DNA from: an uncultured Actinomycetota bacterium
GTDB taxonomy: Bacteria; Actinomycetota; Actinomycetes; JAHEKZ01
Assembly: GCA_963718235.1 (NCBI GenBank)
Contig: CAVQYR010000001.1
Location: 1,472,001 to 1,536,000, forward strand
Length of the DNA: 64,000 nt
Reading direction: 5' to 3'
The notes below the pieces were generated by a model that saw nothing but the letters and a program-made list of their open reading frames with translations, searched no databases and had not been told where the DNA came from. Positions 17,047-49,489 of the stretch are shown piece by piece (within the stretch, counting starts at the first letter, position 1; every line of letters begins with the position of its first letter). A program made the position numbers and the translations under genes.

Positions 17047-17829
17047 TCAGCGCACGCAGATCACGAACACGAAGGTCATGAAAGCCACTTCGGCGGCGGC
17101 ACCGAGCACATCACCGGTGACGCCGCCGAAGCGGCTCACGGCCCGCCGCACGAGCAGCTGACTGGCCAGGAGGGCAAGCGCCCCGGCAACCAAGACGTGC
17201 CAGACGAACGACGAAACGACGTCGTCCTCCCACAGCCCGAGGAGCACGAGGAAGCCGGCGACAGCGGCGGTGACCAACAGCAGCGGCAACGATCTCACCG
17301 TCGACGCGACCGACGCGCCCAGGCCGTCGTCCGTCGCCGCCGGCACGGAGGTACGGGTCGACCAGGTGAGCGCGAGTCGGCTGACCACCACCCCGCCGAG
17401 CAGGGCTACCGTGCCGCGACCGCGCAGCAGCGCGACGTCCAGGGCGGCGACGTCGACCAGGACGACCAGCACGAGCGTGGCGACGCCGAAGGGCCCGACG
17501 TCGGAACGTCGCATGACGGCCAACGCCTCAGCGCCGCGTCGTCCGCTGCCGAGACCGTCCGCCGTGTCGGCCAGCCCGTCGAGGTGCAGCGCGCGGGTGA
17601 GCAGGGCGAGCGTGGCGACGGCCACCGCGGCCACGAGGAAGCGGTCGGTGGTCCCGGGCACGAGCCAGCGAACGGAGAGCGCAGCGGCCTCCGCGCCGAG
17701 CCCGAGCAGCACCCCCACCACGGGCGCGAGCAGCATCGCCTGCGCGGCGACCCGACGGTCGACGCGTCTGGGAGCAGGGACCCGGACGGCGGTCAGCGTG
17801 CCCAGGGCCAGGCGAAGGCCGTCGGTCAT
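17047..17829 (-). CDS. cobS: Adenosylcobinamide-GDP ribazoletransferase (cobalamin synthase)
   Basis: [33 protein letters not shown]. Confidence 0.96.
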
Positions 17830-18932
17830 GCGTCGTCGGCAGCCGGCTCGCCGGGCGGCGTCTGGACGTCGGCCCGGTCGGTGACCCCGGCGCCGTCGAA
17901 GGTCGCCATGTCCGCCAGGGCGCTCTGCGCGGCGCGGAGCACCGGGAGGGCGACGACTGCGCCGGTGCCCTCACCGAGCCGCAGTCCGAAGTCGACGATC
18001 GGCTCGAGCTGGAGCTTGCGCAGGGCCAGGTGGTGCGCCGGTTCCACCGATCGGTGCCCTGCCTGCCACCACGACGACGCCCGGAAGGCGACCCGGTGGG
18101 CCACGAGGGCGCAGGCACCGGACACGAGCCCGTCGAGCAGGACCGGGGTCCGGCGCGCGGCGGACTGCAGCAGCATCCCTGTCATAGCCGCGAAGTCGGC
18201 GCCACCACACCAGGCCAAGAGGTCGAGCGGGTCGGACAGGTGCGGACGGGAGTGCCGCATGGAGTCGCGCACGGCGGCGGCCTTGCGCATCCAGGCCTCG
18301 TCGTCCACTCCGGTCCCGCGTCCCGTCACTGCCACGGCGTCACTCCCGGTGAGCAGGGCGACGATCACCGCAGCAGGCGTGGTGTTGCCGATCCCCATGT
18401 CTCCGGTCAGCAGGATGTCCGCGCCCGCGTCGATCTCCTCGTCAGCGATCGCCATCCCGGCCCGGAACGCCTGCTCGCACTCGGCCCGGGTCAGCGCCGG
18501 TCCGACACTGATGTCGTCGCTCCCGCGGCGGACCTTGTACCGGGTGACCTCGGCCGGGAGGTCGTCGAGGTCGGCGTCGACCGACAGGTCGACCACCCGC
18601 ACCCCCACCGCGCTCACCCGGGCCAACGCGTTGACCGCGGCACCTCCGGCCTGGAAGTTGCGCACCATCTGGGCCGTCACCTCCGCGGGGTAGGCCGAGA
18701 CCCCACTACGGGTGACTCCGTGGTCGCCCGCGAAGACGACGACGCGCGCGCGGTCCAAGGGCCGCGGTGGGCACTGCCCCTGCACCGCCGACAGCCAGCT
18801 CGCCAGCTCCTCCAGGCGCCCCAGCGACCCAGGCGGCTTGGTGAGGTGCCGCTGGCGCGCAGTGGCCTCCTCGGCCGCCGCCTCGTCCGGGCGCTCGATC
18901 CGCTCGCGGACCTCCAGCAGGTCGACACTCAT
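17826..18932 (-). CDS. cobT: Nicotinate-nucleotide-dimethylbenzimidazole phosphoribosyltransferase
   Basis: [36 protein letters not shown]. Confidence 0.97.
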
Positions 18933-20284
18933 GAAGGGCGCCTCCGGTCGAGGGAGAGGGTGCGTCCGGCCACGACGAGACGGACGTCGGTGCTGGCCTC
19001 GGCGAGGCGGGCGTTCAGCACCCCCTGCAGGTCACGGAAGGCCCGGCCGGACCATGTGGCCGGCACGATGCCCGAGCCGACCTCGTTGCTGACCCCCACG
19101 AGGTCACCCTTGGACGTGCGCCACGCCTCGACGACGGAGTCGATCCGCTTGATGGCCAGAGTCGTGTCCTGGGTCTGCCAGGCGTCGGTGTCGTCGAGCA
19201 CCCGGGCCAGCCAGGTCGTGAAGCAGTCGACCAGCACGACCTCGCCGACGCCCACCTGATCGAGGACCGACTCGAGGTCGGTGGTCTCGAGGGTGACCCA
19301 CTGCGCTGGCCGACGAGCCCGGTGGACAGCCACGCGCTCGGCCATCTCGGGGTCATCCACGGCCGCGGTGGCGACGTAGGTCACCCGCGCGTGGTCACTG
19401 ACGAGCTGTTCGGCCGCAGTCGACTTGCCCGAGCGGGCGCCACCGAGCAGCAGCACCCGGGACACCGGGGTCGGGTCCACGTGGTCGGTGCTGATCCGGG
19501 AGCCGTCGGGAAGCACCTCCGCCCCGACCTCGGCGAGGCGTCGCCGCAGGACGGGCAGGGGAGGGTTGTGGTGGCTGAGGTGCACGGCGACGACCCGCCC
19601 CCGCGGGCCGATCGCATCGCATGCGCGCAGGGCGCGGGACGTCGTCGCGAACGAGTCGAGGTCGTGGTGGTCGGTTCCGTGGCCGGTGCGCTCGCCGAAC
19701 GTCTCCTCGAGCAGCACGACGTCGAACCGTCGTCCGGCGACCGCGGTCCAGGTGGCGTCGGTGAACGGTCCGGTGTCACTGGCGTGGAACAGGCGGGCGC
19801 CGGACGACGACTCGACGTCGTACAGCAACGCGTCGCTCGAGGACTCCCCGTGGTGGGCGGCATGCAGGGCCCGGACCCGGTAGCCGTCCCAGTCGAGGAC
19901 GTCGCCGCCGGCCAGCGGGTGCAGGGTCACCGGGCCACCTGGTTCGACCCACGGCTCCACCTGGTCGAGGGCCGCGCCCGGCCCGGCGACGACGAGCGGC
20001 CGGGCTCGCTCGGCCCACTGGTGCGCCAGCAGGGCGAGCCCGTCGACGTGGTCGGGATGGGCGTGGGTGATCAGCAGCAGCCCGACGTCGTGCAGTGGTG
20101 CCCGGTGACGCTCCGCTGCCCTGGGGACGTCGGGCCCGCAGTCGATGAGCAGCCGGTCGTCGACCAGCGCCGAGGTGTGACCGCGGACGACACCTGCCCG
20201 TCGGGCGTCGAGGCACGACGGACACGAGCAGAACGGGTTGGGCCAGCCGTCGGCGGACCCGGTGCCCAGCAGGACGACGTCCAC
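18929..20284 (-). CDS. cobU: Fusion of an N-terminal PhnP-like MBL-fold phosphoesterase and C-terminal adenosylcobinamide kinase/guanylyltransferase
   Basis: LGTG-ADGWP-CSCPSC, THAHPDH, SDTG, HLSHH; then [39 protein letters not shown] in a single ORF. Confidence 0.9.
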
Positions 20285-20291
20285 GACCCGG

Positions 20292-21116
20292 TCAGCCCCC
20301 GACGACGACGTCGGGCTCGACGAACGAGACCGGGGCCGCGAAGGCGGCCCGTCGGGCGGTACGACGCAGGGTACGCAGGACGGGGGCGCCGAGGACGAGC
20401 ACCAGCACCGTGTTGCCGACTGCGCGCGGGATGTCGAAACCGAGGGACGTCGCGAGCGTGTAGGCGAGCAGGCGGCCGGCGTTGTCGCCCACCGGGGCCC
20501 CCGCCACGAACGCGAGGTCGCCGCCCGTCGCGACGAACGGCCAGAACCAGAGGTTGAGCAGCAGCCCGTAGACCAGCCCCCCGACCCCCGCGTACCCGGC
20601 GACGAGAGCCACCTCTCGACGTCCGGTCGCGCGCGGCAGGAGTCCCGCCCCCAGACCGAGCCAGGCTGCGGCGAACATCTGGAACGGCAGCCAGGGGCCG
20701 ACCCCGCCAGTCACCAGCGCCGAGGCCAGCGTCGACGTGGCCCCGAGGGTGAACCCGAAGCCCGGCCCGAAGGCGCGACCGGCGAGCACGATCACCACGA
20801 ACATCGGCTGGAACCCGGTGACGCCCCCGCTCAGCGGCCGCAGCACGGCGGCCAGCGCGGACAGCACCCCCAGCAGCGCCACCGCCTTGGCGTCCATCGC
20901 ACCGTCGGCGACCTCGGCGAGCACCACGGCCAGCAGCATGGGCAGCAGCAGCACGAACAGCCATGCGCCGTCCGGCTGCTGCGCGAGCAGCGCGCCGTCG
21001 TCGACCAGGAACGGCCAGCCGAACGCGAGCAGCCCGACGGCAGACACGAGGCCGATCACCAGGGTGGACCGACGGCCGAGGCGGACGGCGCGCACTGGCG
21101 CCAGGCGGGGACTCAT
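20292..21116 (-). CDS. ECF transporter S component (CbrT-like)
   Basis: DAKAVALLGVL, GRAFGPGFGF, TGGVGPWLPFQM; ATG overlaps the ATPase stop. Confidence 0.88.
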   Translation of the reverse strand: MSPRLAPVRAVRLGRRSTLVIGLVSAVGLLAFGWPFLVDDGALLAQQPDGAWLFVLLLPMLLAVVLAEVADGAMDAKAVALLGVLSALAAVLRPLSGGVTGFQPMFVVIVLAGRAFGPGFGFTLGATSTLASALVTGGVGPWLPFQMFAAAWLGLGAGLLPRATGRREVALVAGYAGVGGLVYGLLLNLWFWPFVATGGDLAFVAGAPVGDNAGRLLAYTLATSLGFDIPRAVGNTVLVLVLGAPVLRTLRRTARRAAFAAPVSFVEPDVVVGG

Positions 21117-22762
21117 CCGGCCTCCCTCAGGCTCGTCGCGACCTCGCGGACGGTCAGCCACGGCAGGGGGGCCAGCACCTTGGCCACCTGGGGCGCGAAC
21201 TGCGGCGACGCCAGCAGGACCTCGCGAACCGGACCGTCGGCGACGACCTCCCCGTCGGCGAGGACCACGACCCGGGTGGCGGCCTCGGCGACGAGCTCGA
21301 CGTCGTGGGTGGCCAGGACGACCGACCGGCCGGCGGCGGCTCGCTGGGTCAGCAGGTCGACCAGGCGGGACTTGGTCGGGTAGTCCAGGCCCCGGGTCGG
21401 CTCGTCCAGGAGCAGCAGGGGTGGGTCTGCGGCCACGATCACGGCGAGGGCGAGCGCCAGCCGCTGCCCCTCGGACAGGTCGCGCGGGTGGGTGGTGTCC
21501 TCGACGCCCGGGGCCAGGGTCTCGAGCAGCCGCCGGGTGGTTCCTCGGGTGACCGCGGCGTCGTGGTCGGCGTCGGCACACTCGTGCCCGACGGTCTCCG
21601 ACCACAACAGGTCGGCCGGCTCCTGTGGCACCAGCCCGACCAGGCGCACGAGCGCGACCGGCGACAGCGCTGCCGGGTCGTCGGCTCCGACCCGAAGGCT
21701 GCCGCCCGAGGGGTGCGTCAGCCCCACGCAGGTGCGCATCAGGGTGCTCTTGCCCGCGCCGTTGCGGCCCATCAGGGCCACGACCTCGCCCGGGTGCACC
21801 TGCAGGTCGACCTGGTCGAGGGCCGTGGTGGCACCCAAGGTGACGCACAGCCGAGACGCGGTCAGCGACGCGGCGGTCGAGCCGCCCAGGGCCGCCCCTC
21901 GGTCGACCACGGCCGGCGGCGCGAGCTCGTCCAGCCGGGCCCGCAGGAGGGTCGACTGACGGCGGGCGTCGCGCACGCTCACCGGGAGGGGTGCCCAGCC
22001 ATGGGCCCGGGCCAGCTCGACGACCGGCGGCACGATCGGGAGGTCCGGCAGCATCTCGGCCGTCGGGCCGGAGGACACCGTGCCCGAGCCGTCGACCAGG
22101 ATCACCCGGTCGGCGAACTGCACGACCCGCTCGAGCCGGTGCTCGGCGAGCAGGACGGTGAGTCCGAGGTCGTGCACGAGGCGGTGCACGGCCGCCAGCA
22201 CCTCCTCCGCCGCGTTGGGGTCCAGAGCCGAGGTCGGTTCGTCGAGCACGAGCACCTTGGGATGGGTCGTGAGCACCGATCCGATGGCGACCCGCTGCTG
22301 CTGCCCTCCGGAGAGGCTGCGCAGTGGTCGGTCGCGCAGCTCCTGCAGACCGAGCAGGTCGAGGGTCTCCTCGACGCGGCGGCGCATGACGTCCGGCGCG
22401 AGACCGATCGCCTCCATGGCGTAGGCCAGCTCGTCCTCGACGGTGTCCGTGACGAACCCGGCCCGCGGGTCCTGCAGGACGACGCCCACGACGTCGGCCA
22501 GCTCGCGGGGCGGGTGGGTGCGGGTGTCGCGACCGTCGACGGTCACCCGCCCGTGCAGGACGCCGCCGGTGAAGTGGGGGACGAGTCCGTTGACCGCGCG
22601 CAGGAGGGTCGACTTGCCGGCCCCGGTACGACCGACGACCAGCGCGAGCTCACCTTCGGGGACGGTGAACGAGACGTCGCGCAGCACCGGGGCGACCTCC
22701 GGGCCGCTTCGTGGCTGGGCGGGGTCGGGGTAGACCACGGTGACCCGGTCGAAGGTGATCAC
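21113..22762 (-). CDS. ECF transporter double-ATPase subunit
   Basis: Two Walker A motifs (GRTGAGKS, GRNGAGKS), LSGGQQQR and LSEGQ signatures, two DEPT motifs. Confidence 0.93.
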   Translation of the reverse strand: MITFDRVTVVYPDPAQPRSGPEVAPVLRDVSFTVPEGELALVVGRTGAGKSTLLRAVNGLVPHFTGGVLHGRVTVDGRDTRTHPPRELADVVGVVLQDPRAGFVTDTVEDELAYAMEAIGLAPDVMRRRVEETLDLLGLQELRDRPLRSLSGGQQQRVAIGSVLTTHPKVLVLDEPTSALDPNAAEEVLAAVHRLVHDLGLTVLLAEHRLERVVQFADRVILVDGSGTVSSGPTAEMLPDLPIVPPVVELARAHGWAPLPVSVRDARRQSTLLRARLDELAPPAVVDRGAALGGSTAASLTASRLCVTLGATTALDQVDLQVHPGEVVALMGRNGAGKSTLMRTCVGLTHPSGGSLRVGADDPAALSPVALVRLVGLVPQEPADLLWSETVGHECADADHDAAVTRGTTRRLLETLAPGVEDTTHPRDLSEGQRLALALAVIVAADPPLLLLDEPTRGLDYPTKSRLVDLLTQRAAAGRSVVLATHDVELVAEAATRVVVLADGEVVADGPVREVLLASPQFAPQVAKVLAPLPWLTVREVATSLREAG

Positions 22763-23896
22763 ACGACCACCTCGGAGCGGTCAGTCGAGACGGCCGGGGT
22801 GCGTCGCGGGGGGGCAGACCGGTGCTCGACCTGGGCCCGCACAGGCGCTGGAGCCACCCACGCCGGCAGCAGGGCGACCAGGATGCACAGCGAAGGCCAC
22901 GACCGGCAGTGGTGGCCAGGTGCCGGCCGGGGGAGCAAGCACCGACGCCCCCTGTGCCGCCAACCCGGACACCACGACTGCGGGCAGGAGTCCCGACCCG
23001 GCGGTGACCCACTCCGGCCACGCCCACGGGTCGGGTCGGTAGACGGTGCGCACATGTCGTCGTCCGGCCCGGGCCATGCCCCCGACTGCCGACACCGAGC
23101 CGAACAGCACCAGGCCCAGCCCGACCAGCCCGGGGCGGGAGGCGTCGAGCAGGCCGTAGGTGCCCACGAGCACCCCGATCAGTCCACCGATCACCAGGCC
23201 CCCGGTGACCCAGCGTTCGCGGGGTGGCAGGTGCCTCGATCGGCCGTAGCCTCGGGAGTCGAGCGCCGCGGCCAGCAGCAGGGACCGTTCGAGGGCGGCG
23301 TCGAGCACCGGGCGGGCGGTCGCTGCCCAGGCGCGGACCCCGGTGTCGCTGCGGCCCCGCAGACGCCGGGCGTGACGCACCTGCTGGACGTGGCTGACCG
23401 TCTGCGGAACGACCGTCAGCGCGACGACGAGAGCGACGCCGACCTCGTACAGGGCGCCCGGCACCGACTTGAGCAGTCGGGTGGGCGCCGCGAGGGCGCT
23501 CGCTGCGCCGACGCAGACCAGGATCGTGGCCAGCTGCAGTCCGGCGTACACCGCGCCCACGAGCGCCTCCACGGTGACCGGACCGCCGAGGCGTGCGCCG
23601 GCCATCCAGTCCGGCAGGGTGGCCGAGGGCAGGGTGAAGGCGACCGTGCCGGGGACCTCCGGACCGAACAGGGCCTCGAACACCACGCGCACGACGAGGA
23701 CGAGCCCGCCGATCATCACGAATGCCTTGAACGACGACGCCCACGGTGCGTCGGTGCGTCGAGCAGCGACGACGAACCCGGCCACGACGATCAGGGTCAG
23801 CAGGAGCAGGGGGTTCAGCGTCCGCGTGGCGGTGGCGGCCAGACCGAGCGCCCACAGCCACCAGGCCCCGGCGTGCAGGGTCCGCTGGCGGCTCAC
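22759..23896 (-). CDS. ECF transmembrane T component (CbiQ/EcfT), frameshifted near 22890
   Basis: LHAGAWW, ARRLRG, ALDSRGYG motifs; the C-terminus continues in the frame ending at 22759, which overlaps the ATPase GTG. Confidence 0.85.
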
Positions 23897-24819
23897 GCCC
23901 GGGCCCGTCTGCGTCGGGACACCAGCAGCGCGGCGCCGCCCAGAGCGGAGAGGGCGACCACCGCGACGACGACACCGGTCGGGCTGCCGGCCGTGGGCGC
24001 CGGGGGAGTGGTCACGGTCGCGGCGGCGACCGGCGTGGCTTCTGGACCTGACGGGTCCGGGGGAGAGGACCCGGCAGTGCCGGCCGACCCAGGGTTGGCC
24101 CGGTCCGGCTTCCCGGTTGGGTCGTCGGTGCGACCGGGCGAGGTCTTCGGCTGCGGGTGCGGGTCGTTGGTGCGCTCGCCGCTGCCGGCGGAGCCGCCCT
24201 GGGACGCCCCACCGGTGGCTCCCGGAGAGCCGGTGCCCGAGCCTGACCCCGGGCCGGCGCCCGCACCACCGTCGTCGGTGGGCGGATCGCTGACCGGCTC
24301 GCCACAGCCGCGAGCGGGGTAGCCACCGATACCGCAGACCAGGCCGGACTCGACTCGCAGGCTGGCGTAGTCGTCGAGCACGGCGTAGCCGTTGGCCGAG
24401 GTCGGCACGACGGCGCAGTGGGTGACGACCCCTGCTGGGGGGGTCACTCCTGGTGGCGCGTCGGACGCCGAGCCGTAGTCCACGACGAGCGCGACCCGCT
24501 TGCTCCCCGCGACCGGCGGGGTCGAGCCGCACACTGCCGAGAACCCCTTGGCCGTCCGCGGGGGCGCCGTCGACGTGCTGGCCGCGCTCACCGCGAACCG
24601 CCAGCCCTCGACCGCGCCGTCGGCCGGCACCCGTGACGCCCCCACGGTGGCGAAGGACCAGCCGGAGTCGCCGCCGGTCCAGTAGGTCCAGAAGCGGTAG
24701 CTCGTGGCCTCCGCCTCGCCCGGGCCGGCCACGATGCCGACCAGCGCAGCGGCCATCGCGAGCAGCACGACCACCCCGACCCGGGCCGGCCGGGGCGAGG
24801 CGCTGGCGTCAGTGCGCAT
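23893..24819 (-). CDS. SCO2322-family surface-anchored protein (DUF4430/transcobalamin beta-domain-like)
   Basis: Signal peptide, YRFWTYW...DGAVEGWRF, VALVVDYG, LVCGIGGYP, Pro/Gly linker, C-terminal TM helix with RRRR tail. Confidence 0.8.
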   Translation of the reverse strand: MRTDASASPRPARVGVVVLLAMAAALVGIVAGPGEAEATSYRFWTYWTGGDSGWSFATVGASRVPADGAVEGWRFAVSAASTSTAPPRTAKGFSAVCGSTPPVAGSKRVALVVDYGSASDAPPGVTPPAGVVTHCAVVPTSANGYAVLDDYASLRVESGLVCGIGGYPARGCGEPVSDPPTDDGGAGAGPGSGSGTGSPGATGGASQGGSAGSGERTNDPHPQPKTSPGRTDDPTGKPDRANPGSAGTAGSSPPDPSGPEATPVAAATVTTPPAPTAGSPTGVVVAVVALSALGGAALLVSRRRRARA

Positions 24820-24834: not shown

Positions 24835-25933
24835 TCACGACGTGATCGACCCCTGGATGCGGGACACGAGGTCGACACCGTTGACGTCGCGGGCGTCGCC
24901 TCGGGTCGCCCGTTCGGTCAGGACGAGCAGGGCGGCCGCACCGGGCAGCACGAACCGGTTCTTGTCCAGCACGAAGACGCGGACGTCTCGTTCGAGGACG
25001 GCACTGGCCACCCGGACCTGCCGCGGGGCGGTCTGGGCTGCGACGAGTGACAGCACGGCGTTGGCGGTGCTGCCGTAGTCGACCCCCGGGCCGAACACCG
25101 CCGGGATCGTCCCACCGTTGGCCCGCAGCCGGGACGCCAGGTAGGCGGCCGCGGCCTGCCGGGTCGACCCGCGGGAAGCGCCCTTGGCGCAGTCCAGGGG
25201 GGTCGGGGCGGACCAGCTGCGGGCCGGGCGAACCGGAAGCGAGGCCCGGGCCAGGGCTTGCGTGGCCTGGGCCGTGGCGAAGTCGTTGGGCTGGGGGGTC
25301 GCCTGGAGCTGGTAGTCCAGGGCGCCGCGGCTCTCGACCGGCGCGGAGCAGCGCAGCTGGGCCTGACGCAGGAACCCGAACCCCGTCCCGTTGTTGGTCA
25401 CGCTGGCCGGCCCGACCCCCATCGCGACCAGGGCCTGCAGGGCCAGACCGGTGGAGTTCGTGTCCGCGCCCCATCCGCTGCTGTACTCCCACCCACCGCC
25501 ATCGAGCTGGGTGCGCTCCAGCCAGTCGGAGCCCGCGCGTGGCGGCACCGTCACGGCCGAGCCGGTGCAGGGCGATGACCGCGAGGGCAGTCGCGTTGGA
25601 GTCACCGGCCGCGCAGGGGAGGGTCAGGTCCGGACGAAAGGACGTCCAGCGCCCGTTCGGGCACTGCTGGCGCAGCAACCAGCGGACCGCGGCCGGGTCG
25701 ACCCGGCCGCGCGCGGCATGCAGCGCGATCAGGCTGATGCTCTGCCGGTACACGCCGTCGTAGGTGGGGTCCTGCCGACCGTAGAGGCCGGACCGGCTGG
25801 GGTCTGAGACCGCTCGGGGCGCGGACTGCGGTGCCGTCGCGTCCGCGGGGGTGGCGACGACGAGCAGGGTGGCGACGACGGCGAGCGCCATCGTCGCCAG
25901 GGGGCCGGACAACCGGCCGACGGTGCTGTGCAC
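24835..25933 (-). CDS. Secreted prenyltransferase/squalene-oxidase-repeat (alpha/alpha barrel) protein, frameshifted near 25529
   Basis: AGAAAGG RBS and GTG start; LYG-QDPTYDGVYRQS, WLLRQQC-NG, DSNATALA, Q-DGGW, DTNSTGLALQAL. Confidence 0.8.
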
Positions 25934-26094
25934 GGGCGGGCCTTTCTGGTGAGCGATCCCGGACGAGGGCCCGAGAACGCCGCTCACGAGAACGCCCCTG
26001 CCGCCATGGGCTGGCGACAAGGGGCGCGGACTCGGGCTCGGCAGCCCGGGCTCCGCCCCGTGAACCTCGACGGTGTTGGGGAGCCGCTCGTCGG

Positions 26095-26192
26095 CGCCAG
26101 GTGCTCCGGCTCGCCATGTCGCCTGGGGGCGCACGGCCTACGGTTGCGGGTCAGCGCCGGCTTCTGACCGGCTTCCCCTGGACGTCGACGCA
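26095..26192 (-). ncRNA. Cobalamin riboswitch
   Basis: Minus strand reads AGGGGAAGCCGGUCAGAAGCCGGCGCUGACCCGCAACCGU...GAGCCGGAGCACCUGG (B12-element core); upstream of ECF and cob genes. Confidence 0.9.
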
Positions 26193-27286: not shown

Positions 27287-28285
27287 TCAGGCGCGGGGGT
27301 TGGGCGACTCGGTGAGCGCGGGGTCGCGCTCGGCCACGGGGGCCAGCACCGCGTCGATCTGGGCCAGCACGGACGGGTCGAGGGTGAGGCCGGACGCCTT
27401 GGCGTTCTCCCGGATCTGCTCCGGCCGCGACGCACCGACGATGGCGGCTGCGACGTTGGGGTTCTGCAGCACCCAGGCGACCGCCAGCGTGGCCATCGAG
27501 ACCCCGACCTCGTCGGCGATCGGGCGAAGGCCCTGGACGGCGGTGAGCACCTCGTCGGTGAGGTAGTCGGCGAGGAAGCCCCCGGCCTCGGGGTCTGCAC
27601 CGCGCGACCCTTCGGGCGGTGTCTGCCCCGGGAGGTACTTGCCGGTCAGCACCCCCTGGGCCATCGGTGACCACACGATCTGGGACAGCCCCAGCTCGTC
27701 GCAGGTCGGCACGACCTCGGCCTCGATGACCCTCCAGAGCATCGAGTACTCCGGCTGGCTGGACACGAACCGGTCGCAGCCGAGCGTGTCCTGCAGCTCG
27801 ACGCCGTCCCGGATCTGGCCGGCTCGCCACTCCGACACCCCGACGTACAGCACCTTCCCCTGACGGATGAGGTCGTCGAAGGCCCTGACCACCTCGTCCA
27901 GCGGGGCCTCGTGGTCGAAGCGGTGCGCCTGGTACAGGTCGAGGTAGTCGGTGCCCAGTCGCTTCAGTGAGGCGTGGCAGGACTCCATGATGTGCTTGCG
28001 CGACAGACCGCGGTCGTTCACGCCAGGACCGGTCGGCCAGTACACCTTGCTGAAGATCTCCAGCCCCTCCCGACGCTGCCCTTGCAGCGCGTAGCCGAGC
28101 GCGGTCTCCGCCCTGCCCTGGGAGTAGACGTCGGCCGTGTCGAAGGTGGTGATGCCGACGTCGAGCGCGGCATGGACCACGTCACGTGCTGCGGTGTCGT
28201 CGATCTGGGCGCCGTGGGTGAGCCAGTTTCCGTAGGTGATCTCACTGATCTTCAGGCCGCTGCGGCCGAGGCGTCGGTGCTCCAT
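27287..28285 (-). CDS. Aldo/keto reductase
   Basis: DTADVY, GLSRKHI, DLYQAHR, GVSEW, WSPMAQGVLTGKY. Confidence 0.95.
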   Translation of the reverse strand: MEHRRLGRSGLKISEITYGNWLTHGAQIDDTAARDVVHAALDVGITTFDTADVYSQGRAETALGYALQGQRREGLEIFSKVYWPTGPGVNDRGLSRKHIMESCHASLKRLGTDYLDLYQAHRFDHEAPLDEVVRAFDDLIRQGKVLYVGVSEWRAGQIRDGVELQDTLGCDRFVSSQPEYSMLWRVIEAEVVPTCDELGLSQIVWSPMAQGVLTGKYLPGQTPPEGSRGADPEAGGFLADYLTDEVLTAVQGLRPIADEVGVSMATLAVAWVLQNPNVAAAIVGASRPEQIRENAKASGLTLDPSVLAQIDAVLAPVAERDPALTESPNPRA

Positions 28286-49320: not shown

Positions 49321-49465
49321 CCCCGCCTAGTCCGGTCGAACCCCTGAGGGTCCGTCCGGAGCCGGGGACCCAGGTCCCAGGGGCGAATCGGTTGGCGCCG
49401 GCACCTGCGGCGGCGACCGTAGGGCGCTTCCCCGCCCGAGCCCGTCAGCTCACCCGGTACGCGGT
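49321..49465 (+). ncRNA. c-di-AMP (ydaO/yuaA) riboswitch
   Basis: CCGCCUAGUCC...GGAGCCGGGGACCCA...GGGGCGAAUC...GUAGGG...CCCGAGCCCGUCAGCUCACCCGGUACGCGG; upstream of a cell-wall hydrolase. Confidence 0.88.
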
Positions 49466-49489
49466 TGAGGGAGAAGGAGAGCCGCCTTC

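Follow-up and report, generated by a model that had tools for sequence, protein, structure and literature searches.

A PhnP-like metallo-β-lactamase-fold domain fused to CobU: a candidate cobamide-opening hydrolase in corrinoid-salvaging Actinomycetota

The window analysed here is a stretch of 64,000 nucleotides from an uncultured Actinomycetota bacterium (assembly GCA_963718235.1, contig CAVQYR010000001.1, positions 1,472,001 to 1,536,000). Within it, a gene placed between those of an energy-coupling factor (ECF) transporter and those of CobT and CobS encodes P0001, a protein in which a PhnP-like metallo-β-lactamase (MBL)-fold hydrolase (residues 1-265) and a complete CobU (residues 277-444) are joined in a single reading frame. 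We favour, with a confidence that stops just short of even, the reading that the MBL module is a phosphodiesterase, analogous and not homologous to CbiR, that cuts the nucleotide loop of cobamides taken up from outside and so supplies the fused CobU. Cross-feeding in soils, waters and guts is shaped by which cobamides each microbe is able to use, and the only cobamide rebuilders known to us are CbiZ, CbiR and some CobS enzymes.

The fused protein and its two domains

The open reading frame (ORF) extends from 18929 to 20284, is open on the minus strand only and encodes 451 amino acids from a GTG start. In a Pfam scan of P0001, Lactamase_B_2 (PF12706) was matched at residues 44-235 with 68 bits (cut-off 27) and CobU (PF02283) at residues 277-444 with 171.4 bits (cut-off 27), the latter over profile positions 1-167 of 168. 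A preliminary description of this DNA had assigned a PhnP-like MBL domain and an intact CobU to the protein; both domains are above cut-off, and every MBL and CobU motif quoted there was found in the translation. The AlphaFold2 model, for which 49 fused homologues served as input, is confident (pLDDT 91.9, pTM 0.75). The two domains are encoded as follows.

19490..20284, minus strand: PhnP-like MBL-fold metallo-hydrolase domain (residues 1-265), from PF12706, the PhnP alignment, Foldseek and invariant residues
18929..19456, minus strand: CobU domain (residues 277-451), adenosylcobinamide kinase/adenosylcobinamide-phosphate guanylyltransferase, from Pfam, NF004469, alignments and fold

The fusion is genuine. 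Both Pfam domains are present in all 120 best-listed homologues of P0001. Related loci were sought in one genome per species with a pattern derived from 10 closer sequences, which gave at least 381 confirmed relatives among 600 pattern matches; the best 80 of these relatives are the related loci referred to below. At 73 of the 80, the reading frame runs from MBL to CobU without a stop codon. By a strict test 62 of the loci form one ORF, and at 11 further loci, likewise in frame, the tblastn alignment overruns the stop by 3-15 nt. The exceptions are one locus with CobU in another frame (L087) and six without the CobU part. An indel artefact, a possibility raised in the preliminary description, can be set aside since 73 related loci keep both parts in one frame. 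DNA matches to the window came from freshwater metagenome contigs of small share and patchy coverage, and among RNA data sets no match was listed; one near-identical contig (record 18 of run X3, a run that may stem from the window's own source sample) spans the junction (19407-19577) with 0 differences and 0 gaps.

The closest solved structure to the N-terminal half by sequence is Escherichia coli PhnP (3g1p; E 3e-8 over residues 3-265). The model of this half is an MBL alpha-beta/beta-alpha sandwich, and in a Foldseek search PhnP 3g1p again ranked at the top (E 1e-16, TMt 0.76, identity 24%), followed by PqqB, 6b9v ('diphosphatase from the PhnP family') and RNase Z; a Brucella MBL protein solved with guanosine or adenosine monophosphate (GMP/AMP; 3md7, 3qh8) is among the other structural neighbours. 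The window's domain was aligned with 33 stand-alone members. Across these 34 sequences C19, C24, R34, H74, D78, H79, H144, D170, H206, H235 and D260 are invariant, and C21, H76 and H238 nearly so. Since these positions coincide in the alignment with the metal ligands and the CxCxxC knuckle of PhnP, the domain looks catalytically competent. Its place in the MBL superfamily is indicated by the PF12706 score, by the HxHxDH motif with the downstream His/Asp/His ligands, and by a fold that fits PhnP, PqqB and RNase Z. The Cys3-His structural zinc knuckle of PhnP is likewise present, formed by C19, C24, C21 and H238, which we take to be zinc ligands as in the PhnP structure.

The likeness to PhnP does not extend to orthology. 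E. coli PhnP (3g1p, 3p2u) is the 5-phospho-α-D-ribosyl 1,2-cyclic phosphate phosphodiesterase of the carbon-phosphorus (C-P) lyase pathway. It shares with P0001 the HxHxDH motif, the later His/Asp ligands and the Cys-x-Cys-x-x-Cys knuckle, but P0001 is only 24% identical, lies in a cob/ECF operon, is fused to CobU and scores 45.9 bits with the PhnP equivalog TIGR03307 against a cut-off of 272.25. No phn-operon setting was seen around the gene, whose neighbours are the ECF transporter genes, cobT and cobS, or at the 80 related loci; within the host genome this result covers the neighbourhood of the gene alone. As both the equivalog score and the operon context fail, the domain is best assigned to the Lactamase_B_2/PhnP-like branch and not to PhnP itself. 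With the low identity, the equivalog failure, the cob/ECF context and the CobU fusion taken together, it is very unlikely to share the PhnP substrate.

The C-terminal half just exceeds the NCBIfam CobU equivalog cut-off (NF004469, 163.6 bits against 161). It aligns full-length (165-170 residues) to the solved chains 7tm8, 1c9k and 8yep, and its model superposes on the CobU structures 8yes, 8ykc and 1c9k with TMt 0.85-0.88. The P-loop GGARSGKS occupies residues 281-288; S285-G286-K287-S288 and H321 do not vary among 49 fused sequences, and both the P-loop and H321, presumably the residue that carries the guanylyl group, line up with the solved CobU chains. By models, P-loop and histidine, and fold alike, this half is a member of the CobU family with predicted kinase/guanylyltransferase activity. 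In comparison with canonical CobU of the Salmonella/Klebsiella type (1c9k, 1cbu, 7tm8, 8yes), the C-terminal 175 residues are alike over their full length in fold, P-loop and histidine, and P0001 differs in the 265-residue MBL hydrolase added at the N-terminus.

Operon, host genotype and distribution

The gene lies in a minus-strand operon in the order riboswitch-like element, two surface proteins, ECF T component, double ATPase, ECF S component, MBL-CobU, CobT and CobS. The features around MBL-CobU are listed below.

26099..26178, minus strand: cobalamin riboswitch-like element at the operon head; RF00174 at 26.5 bits, below the gathering score of 31.5, E 6.8e-4 in a 5-kb search
24835..25975, minus strand: SCO2321-family secreted/membrane protein gene, in two frames; NF053823 at 110.5 bits over the C-terminal part only
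23893..24819, minus strand: SCO2322-family protein with a signal peptide, a domain of about 140 residues, a Pro/Gly-rich spacer and a C-terminal membrane helix; NF040672 at 158.3 bits, cut-off 85
22781..23884, minus strand: ECF transporter T component, start approximate; Pfam CbiQ at 20.3 bits, below the cut-off of 25, a frame plot of third-position GC (GC3) and the L094 homologue, which aligns over 23884-22886
21113..22762, minus strand: ECF transporter double ATPase (A-A' fusion); Pfam ABC_tran in two stretches, 187.3 bits
20292..21110, minus strand: ECF transporter S component, start approximate; Pfam ECF_trnsprt at 50.2 bits, cut-off 30.7
17826..18932, minus strand: CobT, nicotinate-nucleotide:base phosphoribosyltransferase; Pfam DBI_PRT at 440.9 bits
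17047..17829, minus strand: CobS, cobamide 5'-phosphate synthase; Pfam CobS at 144.5 bits

The ECF transporter, MBL-CobU, CobT and CobS genes overlap or nearly abut: the S-component stop codon is 7 nt upstream of the MBL-CobU start, as read from the junction sequence, and the CobT ATG overlaps the MBL-CobU stop (ATGA). The riboswitch-like element is the sole RF00174 match in the whole genome at E<=0.01. At the matching place, a cobalamin riboswitch above the gathering score was found in five of the ten ECF-type related loci scanned (L039, L103, L094, L086, L068).

The host genome (3.17 Mb, 95% complete) has one CobU. Neither CbiB, CbiC, CbiZ nor BluB was found above cut-off in this 95% complete genome, and five B12-binding domains were. 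This gene content marks the host as a predicted corrinoid salvager, one that needs B12 and would make neither the corrin ring nor cobinamide-phosphate. With Rhodococcus queries, no BtuF or FecCD homologues were detected in the host genome; the MBL-CobU operon appears to be its only recognisable route of corrinoid uptake and assembly. Among 20 genomes of the host's order the MBL domain was present in 17. CbiB above cut-off was found in none of these 20 and in none of five other ECF-type genomes, and was present in all five Mycobacteriales genomes tested, including Rhodococcus G424.

Homologues are abundant. Of 8000 candidates scored in a word-seeded protein search, 4472 reached E<=1e-5; where a source gives a name to any of the best 120 listed, that name is CobU only, one cluster holding 333 sequences from Rhodococcus, so public annotation ignores the MBL domain. 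When the MBL part alone was used in a HMMER scan, 2065 representatives were found at E<=0.001 and 77 at E<=1e-30. Among 149 newly listed MBL proteins, 41 also had a CobU part and many others were complete stand-alone proteins of 250-290 residues. In two metagenome representatives, P0154 (585 residues) and P0169 (612 residues), the MBL domain is fused to CobT (DBI_PRT) and not to CobU.

The best 80 loci come from Rhodococcus, Prescottella, Dietzia, Mycolicibacter, Mycolicibacillus, Mycobacterium spp., Nocardioidaceae, Propionibacteriales, Motilibacteraceae, Sporichthyaceae, Frankiaceae, Jiangellales and metagenome-assembled genomes (MAGs) labelled Nanopelagicales. Six architectures were distinguished.

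Among the 80 loci: ECF transporter, MBL-CobU, CobT, CobS
Nocardioidaceae (type B): ECF transporter, MBL-CobU, CobS, without CobT
Rhodococcus: BtuF-like binding protein, FecCD permease, ATPase, then MBL-CobU with an ATGA overlap
Three Dietzia loci: BtuF-FecCD-ATPase importer, then a stand-alone MBL of 272 residues
Among the 80 loci: MBL-CobU, CobT, CobS, with no transporter
Prescottella, Mycolicibacter, Mycolicibacillus: solitary MBL-CobU or solitary MBL amid unrelated genes

The gene directly upstream could be assessed at 76 loci and is an ECF S component at 33, a BtuD-like ATPase at 18 and neither at 25. The BtuD-like ATPase closes a Peripla_BP_2/FecCD/ATPase set, as seen by Pfam in L036 and L066 and by tblastn in the other 16 loci. 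After CobU, the most constant companion of the MBL domain is thus an importer, and this importer is of two unrelated types, ECF and BtuFCD. No CobT is found near the Rhodococcus loci. In Rhodococcus G424, where a second CobU stands alone, the MBL domain sits on the importer-linked copy. In Dietzia, where MBL is parted from CobU, it remains with the importer, and a CobU-CobT fusion and CobS are found elsewhere, at the usual gcvT/pepA locus, without MBL. In a quick tree, the Dietzia stand-alone MBLs nest inside the importer-linked fused Rhodococcus clade. In the Dietzia natronolimnaea genome (G420, L116:7354-9198), the CobU-CobT fusion without MBL has 614 residues and is followed by CobS, gcvT and pepA.

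Across the phylum the domain is rare. In an even sample of 401 genomes it was found at E<1e-30 in four, the next best match being 6e-17, and CobS was found in 203 (a tally that includes the unpublished genomes G082 and G268). As about 98% of the sampled CobS-bearing genomes are without it, the MBL domain is an accessory and not a core step. Since it persists in genomes with only CobU, CobT and CobS, it is predicted to belong to loop assembly or salvage and not to ring or aminopropanol synthesis.

Two oddities were noted among the related loci. A Mycobacterium sp. MAG contig of 4351 nt (L059) carries two MBL-CobU copies that converge from opposite strands and partly overlap; an inverted duplication and an assembly artefact are both conceivable. 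Two records titled Rhodococcus (L035, L036) bear the tree taxonomy label Chroococcidiopsidaceae/Cyanobacteriota, which looks like a label mismatch in the table.

Proposed cobamide opening and its rivals

What has been described so far, from the domain architecture and the conserved catalytic residues to the operon, the salvager genotype and the importer linkage, is observed. From the sequences we infer the substrate of the MBL domain, the bond that it would cut and any channelling between the modules. The two surface proteins and the ECF transporter would bring in corrinoids, under an operon repressed by B12. The MBL module, as a binuclear-metal hydrolase of the PhnP/RNase Z branch, would then hydrolyse the loop phosphodiester of complete imported cobamides. 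The sole phosphodiester of such a cobamide links the aminopropanol phosphate to the ribose 3'-O. Enzymes of the PhnP/RNase Z branch characterised so far are mainly phosphodiesterases; the substrate of PhnP is a cyclic ribosyl phosphate, and the products of RNase Z carry a 3'-OH and a 5'-phosphate. The cut would most likely be made at the ribose 3'-O, in the manner of RNase Z, yielding cobinamide-phosphate and an α-riboside. The cobinamide-phosphate released could be used at once by the fused guanylyltransferase, the CobU module being expected to phosphorylate cobinamide and to guanylylate cobinamide-phosphate. CobS would finally attach the α-ribotide that CobT makes from whatever base is available. 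The net reaction of the MBL module would be that of CbiR, reached by an unrelated fold.

The preliminary description had already proposed that the MBL domain serves the remodelling of imported cobamides. The context fits that idea in the riboswitch-linked operon, the salvager genome, the two importer types and the rarity of the domain among CobS genomes; the cleavage itself is a prediction. Several observations weigh against it. The transported corrinoid is a presumption, as the S component matches only a generic ECF model and, below threshold, a folate-type one. The riboswitch falls below the Rfam gathering score in the window and also in Rhodococcus (25.5 bits, before the importer). At the 25 of 76 loci without a transporter gene directly upstream, the neighbours include GroEL, pyridoxal phosphate (PLP) enzymes, an aldo-keto reductase and NadA. 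The MBL-CobT fusions weaken a strict argument that the domain feeds CobU, and 6b9v, a diphosphatase of the PhnP family by its Protein Data Bank title, indicates that the substrates of the branch go beyond simple diesters. As the host has no BluB, it would have to draw on bases from outside to install a 'preferred' one. In three genomes (L113-L115), more distant stand-alone homologues, at about 30% identity, have no cob, ECF or Btu neighbours, so the link to cob genes is limited to the close clade; in the tree, a long, fully supported branch separates these homologues from the cob-linked clade.

The main rival, also named as the alternative in the preliminary description, is that the MBL domain replaces CobC and removes the 5'-phosphate from adenosylcobalamin-5'-phosphate or α-ribazole-5'-phosphate in the last step of loop assembly. 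We regard this as unlikely, though well short of negligible. The operon indeed has CobU, CobT and CobS and no CobC-type gene, and none of the host's His_Phos_1 proteins reaches the CobC equivalog cut-off (best 127.7 against 162.9); the MBL-CobT fusions would suit a general role in loop assembly, and 6b9v indicates that non-diester chemistry occurs in the branch. A His_Phos_1 gene was found at none of the 80 related loci, which likewise suggests a replacement. The absence of CobC from the operon is nevertheless uninformative: the lack of His_Phos_1 genes at these loci does not depend on MBL, and the host has phosphatases elsewhere. One is a bifunctional RNase H/acid phosphatase of the Rv2228c type (NF005567, 493 bits, cut-off 326), and the CobC-like scores of five other His_Phos_1 proteins are weaker. 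The numbers of CobS-bearing and MBL-bearing genomes (203 and four of 401) indicate that loop assembly in the phylum generally runs without the MBL domain. In Dietzia the domain is found at the importer, apart from CobU-CobT-CobS, and in Rhodococcus it sits on the importer-linked CobU and not on the stand-alone copy. That the characterised enzymes of the PhnP/RNase Z branch are mainly diesterases, and that Salmonella cobC mutants are leaky, also weighs against this rival.

The domain could instead cut another phosphodiester or phosphoanhydride of loop assembly. CobT is said to make α-dimethylbenzimidazole (α-DMB) adenine dinucleotide with NAD+ (reportedly the work of Maggio-Hall and Escalante-Semerena in 2003), and this compound might be split to α-ribazole-5'-phosphate and AMP; mis-made cobinamide-GDP or nucleotide by-products might be removed by way of proof-reading. 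The MBL-CobT fusions P0154 and P0169 and the neighbouring structures 6b9v (diphosphatase) and 3md7 and 3qh8 (Brucella, GMP/AMP) speak for such a role. However, 73 of the 80 loci fuse MBL to CobU and not to CobT, no CobT is near the type B (Nocardioidaceae) or Rhodococcus loci, the stand-alone MBL of Dietzia is linked to the importer and not to CobT, and no need for a step restricted to these lineages is known. A role of this kind seems improbable. The prospects are slightly better, yet still poor, for a third group of explanations, in which the domain acts otherwise on imported corrinoids or lower-ligand precursors (an aminopropanol-side cut to cobinamide and a riboside 3'-phosphate, or action on a conjugated or cyclic-phosphate form) or is a housekeeping nucleotide/RNA phosphodiesterase with an incidental fusion. 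Sequence does not tell which bond is cut, a transporter is not adjacent at 25 of 76 loci, solitary MBL or MBL-CobU genes stand amid housekeeping genes in Prescottella, Mycolicibacter and Mycolicibacillus, and distant family members are unconnected to cob genes. An incidental fusion, however, would not be expected to stay in frame across at least 12 named actinobacterial lineages or to be re-associated with two different B12-type importers, and the cob-linked clade is set apart from the distant homologues by the long branch mentioned above.

Cobamide opening by the MBL module also has to be set against the known enzymes. CbiR cleaves adenosylcobalamin (AdoCbl) to adenosylcobinamide-phosphate (AdoCbi-P) and α-ribazole, its homologues lie beside cobamide genes in 80% of cases and beside transporters in 25%, and CbiZ homologues are often coupled to transporters, as stated in the CbiR study (PMC7733943). 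The CbiR of Akkermansia muciniphila (PMC7733943) resembles the MBL domain in the reaction, which for MBL is a predicted one, and in the neighbourhood beside loop genes and transporters. It differs in being a stand-alone triosephosphate isomerase (TIM) barrel of the AP endonuclease 2 type with demonstrated activity, whereas P0001 has an MBL fold, is fused and has a predicted activity; AP_endonuc_2 (pfam01261) gave no Pfam match in P0001 at E<=0.01. CbiZ, the adenosylcobinamide amidohydrolase, is likewise a loop-opening enzyme. Cobamide opening by the MBL module suits a host that has neither CbiZ nor the CbiB which the CbiZ route needs. CobC, the phosphatase of α-ribazole-phosphate and AdoCbl-5'-phosphate, belongs to the His_Phos_1 family, of which P0001 is not a member, with no match to His_Phos_1 or TIGR03162. 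By homology the MBL domain is thus to be assigned to neither CbiR, CbiZ nor CobC.

No description of an MBL-CobU fusion or of an MBL-fold cobamide enzyme was found in the open full-text literature (subscription papers and supplements were outside the scope), and full-text literature on a PhnP diphosphatase held nothing on 6b9v. New here are the BtuFCD-linked and stand-alone MBL forms, the MBL-CobT fusions and the second Rhodococcus CobU, and also the finding that ECF-type salvagers and Mycobacteriales differ in CbiB, the four MBL-bearing against 203 CobS-bearing genomes and the boundary of the cob-linked clade. Slightly more guardedly than for the reaction itself, we suggest that, next to CbiZ and CbiR, the cob-linked PhnP-like MBL clade could form a third class of cobamide-remodelling hydrolase, unrelated to both in structure, usually fused to CobU and coupled to ECF or BtuFCD uptake. 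Through the fusion, cobinamide-phosphate from a 'wrong' cobamide taken up by the cell would go directly into guanylylation. A conserved domain, predicted to be catalytic, has been overlooked by annotation in thousands of actinobacterial proteins at the point where B12 uptake meets nucleotide-loop assembly. If the proposal is true, a new category of remodellers would have to be added when 'cobinamide salvagers' are predicted from genomes, and the domain would be a clean case of convergent enzyme evolution with a built-in hand-over of substrate. Remodelling would then be commonplace in many Actinomycetota of soil and fresh water, including Rhodococcus, Dietzia, Nocardioidaceae, Nanopelagicales-labelled MAGs and the host's order of small-genome salvagers.

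Surface proteins and other features of the window

Neither of the two surface proteins had a match in a Pfam scan. The SCO2321-family gene has an apparent frameshift near 25527-25539: intact homologues (L039, L103, L094; 379-466 residues) align in frame -3 over 25975-25526 and then in frame -1 over 25539-24841. Since a single low-depth contig of run X3 (depth 2.2) is one base short at 25527, the frameshift may reflect faulty assembly or strain variation and not a dead gene.

In the AlphaFold2 model of the SCO2322-family protein, the core (residues 40-178) is of high confidence. Fold searches with this model gave no Foldseek match at E<=0.001 and no VIA-align match at Z>=5. Among the few VIA-align rows that span residues 103-177 of the core are four cobalamin-carrier beta-domains, those of intrinsic factor (2pmv, Z 2.8), transcobalamin (5no0, Z 2.7; 2bb6, Z 2.5) and haptocorrin (4kkj, Z 2.7), at Z scores far below a meaningful level. 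For corrinoid binding by this modelled protein there is only a hint.

Just past the riboswitch lies an aldo-keto reductase gene (27287-28285, minus strand). In L062, a related locus with no ECF genes, an aldo-keto reductase gene (L062:8632-9630) is directly upstream of MBL-CobU. From this arrangement it looks as if the riboswitch, surface-protein and ECF block may be a cassette that is present or absent between the aldo-keto reductase and MBL-CobU. Elsewhere in the window, a cyclic di-AMP (c-di-AMP) riboswitch (RF00379) was found at 49335-49478 on the plus strand, with 54.4 bits against a gathering score of 38.

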